Assembly: GCA_963842945.1 (NCBI GenBank)
Contig: CAWJIM010000024.1
Location: forward strand, 96,001-160,000
Origin: an uncultured Gemmatimonadales bacterium
Lineage (GTDB): Bacteria; Gemmatimonadota; Gemmatimonadetes; Gemmatimonadales; GWC2-71-9
Reading direction: 5' to 3'
Length of the DNA: 64,000 nt
Part shown: positions 11,678 to 52,359 of the stretch, one piece after another
How the letters are laid out: every line of letters begins with the position of its first letter
Position numbering within the stretch: position 1 is the first letter of the stretch
Made by a program: the position numbers and the translations under genes
The notes under the pieces: model-generated
What the model was told of the DNA's origin: nothing
The model's database searches: none
What the model saw: the letters and a program-made list of their open reading frames with translations, nothing else

Positions 11678-11787
11678 AGGTGGGAAGGAAGGGAAAGACG
11701 GGAAGGTCGGGAACCGAAGGCCGAACCGCAGCCTCCCGTTTCTGGGGGCTCCCGTTCATGCCTGCCGTCCCGTCCTTCCCGTCTTTC
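11678..11787. repeat. Inverted tandem-repeat element, 9-nt units (GACGGGAAG family)
   Basis: gggaaggaa gggaaagac gggaaggtc gggaa ... gtcccgtc cttcccgtc tttc, just 3' of tRNA-Leu. Confidence 0.75.
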
Positions 11788-21710: not shown

Positions 21711-21734
21711 AGCGGTTGCACGTCGGTCGGGTCA

Positions 21735-21854
21735 GCGAGGCGGCGGGGCAGCGGGGCAGCGGGGGACCAAGTCGCGAACGTCGGCATCATGCCGTCGTCA
21801 GCGGATGGGAGTGACTGCCCCTCTGCCCCGCTGCCCCGCCGCCCCGCTGTCTCA
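21735..21854. repeat. Inverted tandem-repeat element, 8-nt units (GCGGGGCA / CTGCCCCG)
   Basis: 4 left units at 21735-21766 and 5 right units at 21815-21854; the last unit contains the stop codon of the MBL gene. Confidence 0.85.
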
Positions 21855-42024: not shown

Positions 42025-42393
42025 ATGAGCGGTGTCGAGCAGCAGTCCCCCGCCACCGGCTTCAGCATGGTGCTGACGCCGAGGGCGGCCGAAGAGGTGC
42101 AGAAGTTCATCACCCAGGAACAGGTTCCAGCCGAGAGCGCCGGCCTCCGGGTCAGCGTGCTTCCCGGTGGCTGCTCCGGGTTCAAGTACAGCCTGAACAT
42201 CGAAGAGCGGCCGCTGGAAGATGATATGGTGGCGGAGGTCAACGGCGTCCGGGTCTTCGTGGACGGCTTCAGCGCCCAGTATCTCACCGGCATCACCATC
42301 GACTACGTGACCTCGATGCAGGGCTCCGGCTTCACGTTCAACAACCCCAACGCCTCCGGCGGGTGCGGGTGCGGCAGCAGCTTTACTGCGTGA
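42025..42393 (+). CDS. A-type Fe-S carrier (IscA/ErpA/HesB)
   Basis: GGCSGFKY and NPNASGGCGCGSSF. Confidence 0.95.
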   Translation: MSGVEQQSPATGFSMVLTPRAAEEVQKFITQEQVPAESAGLRVSVLPGGCSGFKYSLNIEERPLEDDMVAEVNGVRVFVDGFSAQYLTGITIDYVTSMQGSGFTFNNPNASGGCGCGSSFTA

Positions 42394-42511
42394 GCGGTAG
42401 GCGGTGAGCGGTAAGCGGGCGGCCAGAGAAGATCGGATTCTCTGGCCGCCTTCGCGTGTCGCGCTGCCCGCTCACCGCTCACCGCTTACCTTCTCACCGC
42501 TCACCGCTCAC
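42390..42511. repeat. Inverted tandem-repeat element, 7-nt units (GTGAGCG / CGCTCAC), with internal hairpin
   Basis: 4 left units at 42390-42417, hairpin ggcggccagagaa-gatcgga-ttctctggccgcc, 6 right units at 42469-42511. Confidence 0.9.
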
Positions 42512-47553: not shown

Positions 47554-47704
47554 GTAGGACGGCAAAGACGGGAAAGTCGGGAAGGACGGGAAGGTATGCG
47601 AGTCAGGAAAAAGAGGCAGTCGGGGGTGTTCTCCCTGACTGCCTCCTCTCCCATGTCAGCACACCTTCCCGCCCTTCCCGTCCTTCCCGCCTTTCCCGTC
47701 CTAC
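47554..47704. repeat. Inverted tandem-repeat element, 9-nt units, 42-nt arms, GTAG...CTAC ends, internal hairpin
   Basis: gtag gacggcaaa gacgggaaa gtcgggaag gacgggaag gt ... ac cttcccgcc cttcccgtc cttcccgcc tttcccgtc ctac. Confidence 0.92.
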
Positions 47705-48136
47705 TTCGGCGCCTGCCTGCTGCTTCTCCGCCTCCCGGGGGGTGAACCCGATGATCTGGACTCCCGCGCCACGGGCCACGTCCATCGCCTCGATCACATC
47801 CTGATAGAGCCGGTTCGGTCCGGCCTTGATGAACAAGAGCTTGGCCGGACGCTGATCGTAGATCGCGTGGATCTGGGTGTCCAGCTGGTCCCGGGGGACC
47901 GGCTGGCCGTTGATGGAGTAGCCTCCGCCGTCGGCCAGCTCGAGCACGATCTGGCTGGGCGGTGCCTTGGTCGTCTGGGGCGTATCGGGCGGCGGCACCT
48001 GGACATCCAGCGCCATCCGGCTCAAGGGCTGGGTGATCATGAAGATGATCAGCAGCACCAGGAGCACGTCGATCATCGGCGTGACGTTGATGTCCGACTG
48101 CACCCCACCGGAGGAGGCCCCTGCGGTCATTGCCAT
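47603..48136 (-). CDS. exbD: ExbD/TolR biopolymer transport protein (called ORF runs into the repeat; true stop may be near 47701)
   Basis: INVTPMIDVLLVLLIIFMI, YQDVIEAMD. Confidence 0.9.
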   Translation of the reverse strand: MAMTAGASSGGVQSDINVTPMIDVLLVLLIIFMITQPLSRMALDVQVPPPDTPQTTKAPPSQIVLELADGGGYSINGQPVPRDQLDTQIHAIYDQRPAKLLFIKAGPNRLYQDVIEAMDVARGAGVQIIGFTPREAEKQQAGAEVGRERREGREGREGVLTWERRQSGRTPPTASFS

Positions 48137-49376: not shown

Positions 49377-50075
49377 CTATTGCTGCTTGAATGAGACTGC
49401 CTGCTGGACCAACTGCCGGACCGGCCGCCCCTTGAACTTGGCCGGCTTGAAGACGCTCTTGAGAATGGCCTCCCGGGTCGGCTCGCCGAAGGCCGGGTGG
49501 CTGGTCTTCATGATCTTCAAGGAGTTGCCTTCCACGTGGCCGGTGGTGTCCACGATGAACTGCACCTCGACCCGTCCGGTTATTCCGGCGCTCGCCAGCA
49601 CCGGCGGATAGCGCGGCTGAGGCTGGGAGATGACCTGCACCGGGTCATCCAGCTGGGCCTCGAGGAACACTTCGCCGGTTACCGGACCGGTACCGCCCGC
49701 CACGCCGGTCCCGATGCCGCCCTCCACACCCTTACCGGTGAAGTCCCGGGGATCGAACGGCTTCTCGTTCAGATCGATCGGCGGAATGTCCTTGGGGATG
49801 TCGGTCGGCGCCACCACCGTCTGGAACCCCTTGGGCGGCGGGTTGGCCGCAACCACCACGTCCGGCGGGGGCTGGTCCGGCGGCGGCTTGGGGGGCTCCG
49901 GCGGCTTGAGGAACACCATGGTGGTGTCCACCGGACGGTTCTTCACGCTCTCGGCCACGCCCTGCGTCGCCTTGATGGCGCCGAAGATGATGAGGCCGTG
50001 GATCAGGAACGATAGAACCGTCTGTCCAACCGTGCGCTGATTCTTCTGCTTGGATTCGATCAGGTTCTCGAACAC
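49377..50075 (-). CDS. tonB: Energy transducer TonB
   Basis: TM with SxxxH, Pro-rich linker, YP...G.V.VQFIVDTTG...FKPA. Confidence 0.9.
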   Translation of the reverse strand: MFENLIESKQKNQRTVGQTVLSFLIHGLIIFGAIKATQGVAESVKNRPVDTTMVFLKPPEPPKPPPDQPPPDVVVAANPPPKGFQTVVAPTDIPKDIPPIDLNEKPFDPRDFTGKGVEGGIGTGVAGGTGPVTGEVFLEAQLDDPVQVISQPQPRYPPVLASAGITGRVEVQFIVDTTGHVEGNSLKIMKTSHPAFGEPTREAILKSVFKPAKFKGRPVRQLVQQAVSFKQQ

Positions 50076-50385
50076 GCAACTACCTCCAGGGGGAGGGTGA
50101 TCGTGCCCGGAAAGTAAGGCGCGCTGAAAACACCTGCTTTGCCCTCAGATGTCATTTCGATTACAGCCGCATTAGCAACTGCAACTGCTGCATCCGAAGG
50201 GCGGACACAACCCTACTCTGAGCTACAGAACTGCGGCGTGATCTGACTCACACGGCCTCGGCCTACGTTATCCCTCGCCCGGGTTTTGGCAAGCAACGTC
50301 CGCAGTACGGTGTCTGCGTAACTGCGGACCGCACTGGATGGTTCAGGATTGTCACGACAGGCAGAACCGGGTCGAGTCTTAGCCA

Positions 50386-50790
50386 ATGATTCACCACAGA
50401 GGCACAAAGGACACAGAGGGTCCGGCTCCCCAACTGACTCACGACATCGTGGGTGCAGCCATCGAGGTCCACCGGCAACTTGGACCAGGCCTCCTGGAAT
50501 CAGCATACGAAGCTTGTCTCAGTAGAGAATTGTCATTCCGGGGAATCGACCACAAGAGGCAGGTTTCACTGCCAGTGGAATACAGAGGTCTTCAAGTGGA
50601 ATGCGGCTACCGGCTGGATCTTGTAATCGCAAACGTGATCATCGAGGTCAAAGCAGTTCAAAAGGTACTTCCCATTCACCGTGCCCAGGTACTCACCTAT
50701 CTAAAGTTGACGGGTTACCGCCTTGGCTTGCTGATCAATTTCAATGTTGAAGTACTTCGCGCCGGTATCTACCGGATCATCAATGGATGA
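50386..50790 (+). CDS. GxxExxY protein (PD-(D/E)XK nuclease fold)
   Basis: [24 protein letters not shown]...[19 protein letters not shown]; visibly lower GC than its neighbours. Confidence 0.93.
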
Positions 50791-50826
50791 CGTTACCTCT
50801 GTGTCCTCTGTGCCTCTGTGGTGAAT
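50389..50826. mobile_element. Candidate mobile cassette: 31-bp inverted arms of 9-nt repeats enclosing the GxxExxY gene
   Basis: attcaccacagaggcacaaaggacacagagg (50389-50419) vs cctctgtgtcctctgtgcctctgtggtgaat (50796-50826): 30/31 complementary. Confidence 0.7.
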
Positions 50827-50905
50827 TCGCGGAGTTGCATTCCTGGCTCGCAAAGCGGTCTCGCATTGAACCTTCGGTTACGCCCTGCGGCTGTCCTGCC
50901 TGGTT

Positions 50906-52359
50906 TCAGCCGGACTTCGAATTCGGCTTCGGCAATCGCACGATAAACGTCGAACCTCGCCCCGGCCGGCTTTGCACCGTGATCGATCCGCCGTGCGCCT
51001 CCGCGATCCATTTGGTGATCGCCAGGCCCAGGCCGGTGCCGGGGCGCGCGCCGGTGCGCGAGCGGGCCTGGTCCGCCCGCCAGAACCGGTCGAAGATGTT
51101 CGGCAGGTCGCCGGGCGCGATGCCGATGCCGCTGTCCCGCACGGTAAACGTCACCGCTCCGTCGTCCTGTTCCAGATTCAACGCCACCGTCCCGCCCTGG
51201 GGCGTGTACTTGATGGCGTTGGTCACCATGTTGAGCAGCATCTCCCGGATCCGGTGCCGGTCCACCGCCAGCCGGACCGGGGTCTCGGGCATGCTGTGCA
51301 CCGCGCTCACCCCCGCCTGCTCGCCCAGCATTCCCGCGGTCTCCGCCACATCCGCCACCACCTCCCGGAGATCGCTTTCCTCCACCGCCAGCGGGGCCCG
51401 GCCTTCATCCGCCCGGGCGAGCGTCAGCAGGTTCTCCACCATCTCCGTCATCTGATTGATCTGGGCCAGTGTCTCGTCCAGCGACTGCAGCATTTCCGGC
51501 GGCGTCCCCGGATGGATCAGCGCCCGCTCCACCCCGGCCCGCAGCACCATCAGTGGCGTCTTGAGCTCGTGGCTGGCGTCGGCGGTGAAGCGGTGCAGGC
51601 TGGAGAAGCTGCGCTCCAGCCGGGCCAGCATGCCGTTCACCGTCGCGGCCAGCCGGGACGATCTCGTCGCCGCTGAGCGGTACCGCCAGCCGCCGGTGCA
51701 GGCTGGTGCCGTCGGAGATGGCGTCCACCTCGTCCATGATGCCCTGCACCGGTCTCAGGCTGGTGCCGGCCAGCCAGTTCCCCACCAGGATGGCGCCCAC
51801 CAGGATCACCGGAGCGATCAGCAGCATCGAGCGAAGCAGATCAGACGGTCCGAACGAGGCCTGCCGGGTGGGCGTGGCCACCAGGAGCCCGCCGATGGCG
51901 GGGCCGGCGTTGTCGATCGGCGTCACCAGATACTGCATGCTGCCCACCGGCGGGCCCACGTTGATCAGCGCCTGAATGGCGGCTGAGAGGCAGGGTGTCG
52001 AGCGGCGCGGTCAGGCTCTCCAGCGCCGGCGCGCTGAGTCCCCGGGCAATGTCGGAGAGCGCCAGAAGCTGGCCGGCGGTGTCGGCGACGATCAGGTAGT
52101 CGCGCGCGGCCTCGAGGTAGGCGCTGATTCCGGGGTCCAGCGTGGGATTGAGATTGGACGTGGTCACGATCCGGCCCAGCACCTTGTACGACTGGGCGAG
52201 CCAGCGCTGCGCCAGGTCCGCTTCGAGGGTGAGGCGCTGGTCCAGCTCCCGCACGCTGGCCTGCCGGCGCTCGATGTAGAGCGCGGTTCCAAATGCCAGC
52301 ACCGTCACCGCGAGCGCCACCGTATACCAGAAGGTGAGTCGCAGGCGGATGGTCGCCAT
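50906..52359 (-). CDS. HAMP sensor histidine kinase, frameshifts near 51970 and 51660
   Basis: FTADASHELKTPL, NMVTNAIKYT, DSGIGI, GTGLGLAI; two TM helices. Confidence 0.9.

Follow-up and report, generated by a model that had tools for sequence, protein, structure and literature searches.

A GxxExxY nuclease gene enclosed by inverted tandem-repeat arms: likely an undescribed kind of selfish DNA

Introduction

Why should a small gene of the GxxExxY family be enclosed between two inverted arms that are themselves built from short tandem repeats? This arrangement is found at positions 50386-50826 of a 64,000-nucleotide stretch of DNA (the window, analysed at its full length) from an uncultured Gemmatimonadales bacterium (GenBank assembly GCA_963842945.1, contig CAWJIM010000024.1, positions 96,001 to 160,000). 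The genome carrying the window is here called G000, and the gene together with its arms is called the cassette. A prediction made from the letters of the sequence (the original prediction) described a minimal selfish cassette of about 440 bp, whose nuclease recognises or resolves the hairpin or cruciform formed by the repeats and may generate or move empty elements. The analyses reported here indicate that the cassette is likely an undescribed kind of selfish DNA.

Results

Architecture of the cassette

The cassette consists of the following features.

50386..50826, + strand: whole cassette (441 bp), comprising start codon, left arm, GxxExxY gene, 5-nt spacer and right arm
50386..50790, + strand: open reading frame (ORF) of 134 amino acids, encoding a GxxExxY / PDDEXK_3 protein with catalytic residues and motif intact
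50389..50419, + strand: left arm (ATTCACCAC and AGAGG/AAAGG units), in-frame codons 2-12, encoding an N-terminal tail that is predicted to be disordered
50431..50778, + strand: PD-(D/E)XK domain proper, residues 16-131 (Pfam and NCBIfam envelopes)
50796..50826, + strand: right arm, the reverse complement of the left arm (30/31), beginning 5 nt past the stop codon

A repeat search placed the arms at 50389-50419 and 50796-50826; they are 31 nt each, 97% (30/31) complementary and 376 nt apart. Their sequence is ATT-CAC-CACAGAGG-CACAAAGG-A-CACAGAGG, made of 8-9-nt units and with the terminus TTCACCAC. In a scan of the whole 64-kb window they were the sole gene-size pair of their kind, and a two-unit pattern with up to 2 mismatches matched twice in the 64 kb, both matches being the arms (0.05 expected; 0 of 100 shuffles reached 2). 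Arms were scored by local alignment of the upstream window to the reverse-complemented downstream window, the threshold being the maximum of 400 random controls; the arm pair scored 28.5, compared with 8.3 on average and 14.5 at most for 400 random places of matching geometry in its own genome. In the fold predicted for single-stranded DNA (-81.7 kcal/mol, z = -4.6), the arms pair to form a closing stem of 31 bp.

The arms of the original prediction, 31 nt long, 30/31 complementary and composed of CACAGAGG-type units, are thus borne out by the repeat search and by the shuffled and random controls. The coordinates also agree with a left arm translated from codon 2 (the ATG is at 50386-50388) and with a right arm 5 nt past the stop codon (50788-50790), from which it is separated by CGTTA.

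Recurrence of gene and arms across phyla

A genus/order set of homologous loci and a set from genome contigs were merged and de-duplicated, giving 111 distinct loci in which arms exceeded the random maximum at 74, in about 10 phyla. Among the genus/order loci this was the case for 28 of the 44 scored, 3 of the 44 having faulty stop coordinates; in the contigs of one genome per species, where 80 loci were located, it was the case for 49 of the 76 scored. Outside the Gemmatimonadota 40 of 63 scored loci were armed, and the phyla with armed loci include the Acidobacteriota, Chloroflexota, Pseudomonadota, Planctomycetota, Cyanobacteriota, Thermodesulfobacteriota, Myxococcota, Abditibacteriota and Dormiibacterota. 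With arms at 74 of 111 loci, homologues are not generally armless, their flanks do carry inverted tandem arrays, and the gene-plus-arms unit of about 440 bp is real and recurrent.

Units of the form ..ACC[AG]C[AG][AG]AG are present in arms of the Acidobacteriota, Cyanobacteriota, Chloroflexota, Planctomycetota and Pseudomonadota, and arms from other phyla are written in a near-identical word, for example TCACCACAGAGTCACAGAGACACAGAG, AACCGCAAAGGGCGCGAAG and AACCACGGAGACACGGAG. Conservation across phyla of the arm sequence, and not only of its complementarity, therefore argues for sequence recognition beyond mere pairing.

The distance from the stop codon to the right arm has a median of 4 nt in the 74 cassettes. 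An in-frame start is located at or before the left arm in 34 of them, the arm is in the leader in 30 and the remaining 10 are ambiguous, so that translation of the arm appears to be a by-product of tight packing.

Within any one cassette the arms are of a single unit type (AGAGG, AAAGG, GAAGG, GGAAG, GGAGG or GATGA), and the units of the two arms form the pairs CACAGAGG/CCTCTGTG, CACAAAGG/CCTTTGTG, CACGAAGG/CCTTCGTG, CACGGAAG/CTTCCGTG, CACGGAGG/CCTCCGTG and ..GATGAA/TTCATC... Mapped onto the protein tree (FastTree, 111 proteins, 65 typed cassettes), the unit type changes 14 times, compared with 22-27 times in 300 label shuffles. The co-variation of protein and repeat for which the original prediction had called is therefore seen, the unit type following the protein clade. 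As this agreement equals the expectation from plain co-inheritance, it shows a coherent unit and not recognition.

Copies and decay within the genus

G000 contains three GxxExxY cassettes, of which the copy in the window is intact and two are decayed, with different arm types. The decayed cassettes (G000:C19:168241-168441 and G000:C18:60365-60574) each lie within their own arm type, one with CGGATGAA units and the other with CACGGAAG units and in-frame stops. Across 103 genomes of the genus, which include the unpublished G047 (no claim depends on G047 alone), PF13366 matches are present in 74, many of them fragmentary, and there are none in 29. Frequent decay of copies is typical of selfish genes.

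Gene-less arms and hairpins

A search with a 28-nt arm pattern and a tolerance of 3 mismatches gave 586 matches, spread over 61 of the 103 genus genomes and with a peak of 45 in one genome; the reversed control pattern gave 1 match in the same genomes. Most arm copies are convergent pairs 60-190 nt apart, i.e. short-loop hairpins. The CACGAAGG arm type is found in 63 of the 103 genomes, with 47 copies in G089 and none in G000, where the gene-less copies of the CACAGAGG arm type are single arms, accompanied by one additional hairpin of mixed units. More than two arms are present in 28 of the 42 genomes with the arm-bearing gene clade and in 11 of the 61 without it (odds ratio 9.1, Fisher p 1e-6, for a sample in which relatives are non-independent and many genomes incomplete).

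In one hairpin subfamily, each side contains the arm and about 43 nt from the 5' end of the gene (..CTCACGACATCGCGG), and palindromised hairpins are located at L005 (G024:C102), L062, L066, L074 and L080. These are palindromised left ends rather than internal deletions, which hints at fold-back synthesis.

Five arm sites of the relative G105 could be compared with their orthologous positions in G000. Two are shared, and G000 lacks the other three (two pairs forming gene-less hairpins and a single arm), the boundaries having diverged. Inspection by eye of the cassette and of about 30 arm termini revealed no target-site duplication.

On its opposite strand, a single arm at G000:C20:20894 supplies the first codons of an ORF (MRRILGVLCASVVIGSC..), a beginning that resembles a signal peptide, and the arm is kept at the orthologous position G105:C42:1194. 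Multicopy sequences of Geobacter metallireducens are heptanucleotide-repeat elements, with no link to GxxExxY in the available part of the text that describes them (PMC2700814).

The GxxExxY protein

The protein matches PF13366 (PDDEXK_3) over residues 16-131 (8.9e-41, 139.4 bits against a curated cut-off of 22), which is its sole Pfam match, and TIGR04256 (GxxExxY; 1.1e-41, 141.9 bits against a curated cut-off of 35). In an alignment of 43 sequences (A1) the G35, E38 and Y41 of the G35-x-x-E38-x-x-Y41 motif are invariant, as are D78, E87 and K89; the catalytic D78 and E87-x-K89, together with E38, are intact in the window copy.

The AlphaFold (AF2) model is an alpha/beta structure with a pLDDT of 91 and a pTM of 0.82, in which residues 1-12, the arm-encoded tail, have a pLDDT below 50. 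A PDB sequence search with the 134-residue protein gave 0 matches at E <= 1 and Foldseek with the model gave nothing at E <= 0.001. The best VIA-align matches were a restriction-endonuclease-like protein and Cas4 SSO0001 (both Z 7.6), followed by BpuSI (Z 7.4) and BglII (Z 7.2); the Holliday-junction resolvase Hjc structures 1gef (Z 6.4) and 1hh1 (Z 5.5) rank below these restriction-enzyme and Cas4 rows and may reflect no more than the shared PD-(D/E)XK core. Judged from the model, the fold is that of a generic minimal nuclease core and indicates no substrate.

The GxxExxY/PDDEXK_3 family numbers at least 7,999 proteins at E <= 1e-5. Identity between the window protein and proteins from other phyla is 53-66%, compared with 35-40% for other GxxExxY genes of its own genus, and 118 of 119 close database homologues (68-89% identical) start with an arm-encoded tail resembling HHRGTEDTE- or HHKGTKDTK-. 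Among the matches listed, most homologues are on 1-2-kb contigs. In the part of the published survey that was available, PDDEXK_3 is entered as 'Unknown', with 'multiple transfers' (PMC3424549), and a GxxExxY domain is named as adjacent to a CRISPR reverse transcriptase in the available part of another study (PMC8934634). The family models, the fold comparison and the table in PMC3424549 agree with the earlier assignment of a PD-(D/E)XK fold with no assigned function. A search of the open-access literature found no account of repeat arms around GxxExxY genes or around the PF05635 genes described below.

Turnover between tonB and the histidine kinase gene

The surroundings of the cassette are as follows.

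50296..50926, strand not assigned: variable segment of the locus, from the tonB leader motif (..TTTTGGCAAGCA) to the 3' end of the histidine kinase gene
49377..50075, - strand: tonB (TonB_C), which opens the flanking operon tonB-exbB-exbD (context only)
50906..51640, - strand: histidine kinase gene, 3' part (HisKA and HATPase_c) (context only)

The neighbours on the left (TonB_C, ExbB, ExbD) and on the right (HisKA/HATPase_c and Response_reg/Trans_reg_C) are all on the - strand, so that the GxxExxY gene, on the + strand, is antisense to both operons. Its guanine-plus-cytosine (GC) content is 0.52 over 50400-50799, compared with 0.66-0.71 in the flanking genes and 0.65 genome-wide. Both the low GC and the antisense position between a tonB operon and a two-component operon had been read from the sequence correctly. 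A scan of 50050-50950 detected neither a sigma-70-like promoter nor an intrinsic terminator, such scoring being uninformative for this phylum.

In all 15 first-draw relatives for which one contig spans both flanks, the spacer between tonB and the histidine kinase gene (87-1131 bp) is without the cassette; in the closest first-draw relative, G011 (95-96%), the contigs end on both sides of the site, which is therefore uninformative. Further relatives differ in what the site contains (identities refer to the flanks).

G105 (tonB 99.1%, histidine kinase 99.0%): the same cassette, with 1 mismatch in 433 nt
G087 (tonB 96.1%, histidine kinase 93.3%): a different version, with a body 69.5% identical and AAAGG-type arms at 90%
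G056 (80-83%): a decayed copy with an internal deletion
G054 (96-97%): no cassette, with another filling of 330 bp that includes a palindromic repeat of roughly 110 nt
G050 (94%/90%): arm-like remnants only
G081 (96%/93%): arm-like remnants only
G067 and G061 (about 80-83%): no insert, the histidine kinase end abutting the tonB leader

The cassette is thus not syntenically fixed, being absent from the 15 first-draw relatives and from G054 and present as another version in G087. The expectation of an empty tonB-histidine kinase site in relatives holds in part: relatives without the cassette exist (G054, G067 and G061), but none presents a clean, arm-bounded empty site. The segment swapped whole between relatives (50296-50926) comprises the cassette together with unique DNA of about 90 and 100 bp, and the DNA just left of the arm cannot be aligned between G000 and G087 (39%).

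G000 and G105 are 97.8-99.8% identical over about 6 kb (about 47.6-53.6 kb of the window; G105:C25), a tract that contains exbD-exbB-tonB, the cassette, the histidine kinase gene and the response regulator gene; the lone lower bin within it (92%) contains an indel right of the cassette. Outside the tract the two genomes are about 88-93% identical, with 500-bp windows ranging from 82% to 97%. The window copy has moved between lineages inside a recent tract of ordinary homologous recombination.

Metagenome contigs break at the arms, where depth peaks at 33.7 compared with 5.3. Among the contigs from DNA reads none joins tonB to the histidine kinase gene without the cassette, and the arm-to-arm joints carry other flanks, which identifies them as gene-less hairpins of other loci and not as excision products.

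Several further observations were made at this site. The palindromic repeat of roughly 110 nt (GGGTGAGCCGAT...ATCGGCTCACCC) occurs, in both orientations, in the spacers of L170 (G054), L171 (G081), L172 (G050) and L169 (G087). In L171 (G081:C657) the contig runs, past the arm remnant, into rplU-rpmA and not into the histidine kinase gene, so that either the region is rearranged or the assembly is chimeric at the repeat. A direct duplication, TTTGGCAAGC / TTCGGCAATCGC, brackets the variable spacer at about 50285-50297 and 50915-50930, its second copy being the 3' end of the histidine kinase gene; G067 and G061 have one copy only. The histidine kinase gene itself is in three frames over 50906-52359 (- strand), namely 50906-51640 (HisKA and HATPase_c), 51405-51959 (weak HAMP) and 51841-52359 (N-terminal part), split by either two frameshifts or sequencing errors.

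Four-helix-bundle cassettes and other hairpin families

A second gene family is packaged in a similar way. PF05635 genes, encoding four-helix-bundle 'IVS proteins' (IVS, intervening sequence), are present in 84 of the 103 genus genomes, with 7 in G000, and 22 of 28 scored PF05635 loci of the genus have arms of inverted tandem units, none of them CACAGAGG-like. Their unit families are CGCCAGT, GGCTATT, AGCTAAC and GAGTCGC, and the arms lie 74-110 nt upstream of the ORF. G000 contains at least 82 inverted pairs of 7-9-nt tandem arrays, in several unit families and mostly gene-less; 5 of its 7 PF05635 genes sit in gene-size pairs of these families.

The window has gene-less hairpins at 11693-11787, 21733-21853, 42390-42490 and 47567-47700, with units GGGGCAGC, GACGGGAAG and GGTGAGCG. 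These 'empty elements' are outside the CACAGAGG family, and in G000 their families accompany four-helix-bundle genes and not the GxxExxY nuclease. The hairpin at 47567-47700 overlaps the 3' end of an ORF at 47603-48136 (- strand) with the tail ..REGREGREG.., and the repeat appears to be translated.

Discussion

The reading tentatively favoured here, for which the case is close to balanced, is that of a selfish, DNA-level system similar to the REP/RAYT elements (repetitive extragenic palindromes and their associated tyrosine transposases), with a nuclease that acts on its own arms. The cassette is a coherent, horizontally spread and often decaying unit of gene plus arms, which has type-matched gene-less relatives and undergoes local turnover; to that extent the original prediction is supported. 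Action of the nuclease on the arms is predicted: the GxxExxY protein would bind and cut them, either as repeated double-stranded sites or as a hairpin or cruciform, and host repair or recombination would afterwards copy, move or remove the arm-bounded DNA. The gene-less hairpins would then be non-autonomous relatives of the cassette and the arm-encoded N-terminal peptide a by-product of tight packing.

Several observations weigh against a nuclease that moves its own arms. Replacement at the tonB site is not arm-bounded, since the swapped segment (50296-50926) extends beyond the cassette and the sequence immediately outside the arms cannot be aligned between G000 and G087, and neither a clean filled/empty boundary at the arm ends nor a target duplication was found in the relatives compared there. 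The near-identity of the G000 and G105 cassettes is due to the 6-kb recombination tract and not to transposition. G063, which is 97% complete, has 32 arms and 0 PF13366 matches; G042 and G001 are also arm-rich with zero PF13366 matches, and G089, with its 47 GAAGG-type arms, has just a distant GxxExxY gene. Genes may be missing from arm-rich genomes because assemblies break at the arm repeats. Four-helix-bundle proteins are no nucleases yet are equally packaged, so catalysis by the enclosed protein cannot be a general rule. Co-variation of arm and protein is also expected from plain co-inheritance, and the fold search yields generic PD-(D/E)XK matches only (top Z 7.6; Hjc Z 6.4).

An alternative, judged unlikely, is that the genes are passengers of a general hairpin-repeat system, moved or made by a host or unlinked function, by replication slippage or by fold-back synthesis, with the GxxExxY and four-helix-bundle genes as cargo, e.g. 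addiction or defence modules. The packaging common to two unrelated gene families fits such a system, as do the mostly gene-less tandem-array pairs of G000 (at least 82), the arm-rich genomes without GxxExxY, and the palindromised left-end hairpins (arm plus about 43 nt), which resemble fold-back synthesis and not protein-driven transposition. Random capture of cargo, however, would mix arms and genes, whereas the unit families are specific to gene family and clade: 0 of the 22 four-helix-bundle arm pairs are CACAGAGG-like, and unit type follows the GxxExxY tree. Co-occurrence of gene and arms, and conservation of the arm motif across phyla along with the gene, also argue against passengers.

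Slightly less likely again is an explanation at the RNA level. Intervening sequences of rRNA with flanking inverted repeats are a precedent for inserts of this form, and by analogy the arms would pair in transcripts, where RNase III cuts out or insulates the insert, or occlusion of the start region controls translation; the arms would make insertion harmless and would not be transposition sites. With the left arm opening at codon 2, a 31-bp stem would indeed bury the start region, the gene leaves little room between the arms (a median of 4 nt separates stop codon and arm), and the genes for four-helix-bundle 'IVS proteins' have a like layout. Against this, 107 arm mismatches from 33 cassettes had no excess of the sense-strand, G.U-compatible kind (27 versus 33 of the A.C type, p = 0.52), a result also compatible with selection on both strands; this wobble test gives no sign of a stem selected in mRNA alone. 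There is no single translational logic, since the arm is in the leader in 30 of 74 cassettes and translated in 34, and an RNA-level role sits poorly with hundreds of gene-less copies and with an arm sequence conserved across phyla beyond its complementarity.

That this is an ordinary resident gene, encoding a conserved nuclease with a housekeeping role and flanked by inverted repeats that serve locally for regulation or as a pair of terminators, without mobility, is highly improbable: the intact ORF, the conserved catalytic residues and the near-identical G105 copy (1 mismatch in 433 nt) would suit it, but it is contradicted by a patchy and shifting distribution (a site empty of the cassette in most relatives, replacement in G087 by a version of 69.5% identity, no PF13366 match at all in 29 of the 103 genus genomes), and also by the frequent decay of copies, a GC of 0.52 compared with 0.65 genome-wide and the lack of any scored terminator-like or sigma-70-like site.

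Of known systems, REP/RAYT offers a close parallel to the favoured DNA-level reading. In the available part of the published account (PMC3116915), the enzyme gene of the REP/REPIN-RAYT system (REPINs are REP doublets forming hairpins) lies within inverted copies of a repeat that is also dispersed as hairpin-forming doublets; the repeat has several 'flavours', each with its own gene, and gene and repeat co-occur and appear to co-evolve. The same text describes RAYTs as single copies and takes their patchy spread between distant taxa to suggest lateral transfer (PMC3116915). Similarly, the GxxExxY gene is flanked by inverted copies of a dispersed arm repeat, the repeat is present genome-wide as inverted hairpin doublets (586 arms in 61 of 103 genomes), the arm types each have their own gene clade, and the distribution is patchy between distant taxa. 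The differences are that GxxExxY is a PD-(D/E)XK fold of roughly 120 residues and not a Y1 (HUH) tyrosine transposase like that of IS200/IS605, that each arm is a direct tandem array of 8-9-nt units (CACAGAGG x3) with no internal palindrome, that the left arm is often translated, that cassette copies are often several per genome and often decayed, and that some arm-rich genomes are without the gene. Membership of the REP/RAYT family is ruled out, because the cassette has neither a Y1 transposase nor a palindromic REP unit.

Intervening sequences of 23S rRNA may carry an ORF of the 23S_rRNA_IVP or four-helix-bundle family (PF05635). The cassette shares with them a small ORF within inverted repeats able to form a long stem and a patchy distribution, and the PF05635 genes of the genus carry the repeat-arm packaging (22 of 28 scored loci). 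It differs in its nuclease-fold protein, its tandem-unit arms, its dispersed gene-less copies and its intergenic place. A 23S rRNA intervening sequence is ruled out, as the cassette sits between tonB and the histidine kinase gene.

Miniature inverted-repeat transposable elements (MITEs) and their parent insertion sequences, e.g. Correia/NEMIS and the Rickettsia palindromic elements, have terminal inverted repeats and short gene-less hairpin derivatives. Terminal inverted repeats, gene-less hairpins and places that are intergenic and sometimes in-frame are common to these and to the cassette, which, unlike them, encodes no known transposase family and has no target-site duplication visible by eye; nor do its gene-less forms, as far as examined, derive from simple internal deletion, some being palindromised left ends. 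Homing endonuclease genes are small selfish nuclease genes, the enzyme of which likely cuts copies without the gene. Like free-standing ones of the PD-(D/E)XK type, the cassette is a small nuclease gene present or absent at one site between close relatives, and the catalytic domain of I-Bth0305I is among the weak Foldseek rows (rank 19, E 0.17); the cassette differs in having no intron or intein context and in that the replaced segment is not arm-bounded. The Foldback (FB) elements of Drosophila also have long terminal inverted repeats composed of short tandem repeats and many copies without a coding middle, but they are eukaryotic, far larger and unrelated in coding content, and there is no sign of common descent with the cassette.

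A wider and more doubtful possibility is that the GxxExxY and four-helix-bundle cassettes belong to an unrecognised superclass of prokaryotic mobile DNA, in which each protein would recognise its own tandem 'word' and seed gene-less hairpins genome-wide, even within genes. Copying might then begin with cleavage of the arm hairpin by the PD-(D/E)XK enzyme and be completed by host repair or fold-back synthesis, and the rRNA intervening sequences would be a special case.

If GxxExxY proteins are the enzymes of a repeat-arm selfish element, a very large family would gain a function, and a lifestyle like that of REP/RAYT would be realised with another enzyme fold. Hundreds of short 'hairpin repeats' in the genomes of soil bacteria would be explained, and a source of breaks in metagenome assemblies, whose contigs end at the arms, would be accounted for. 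The origin of ORF-bearing rRNA intervening sequences would also become testable.

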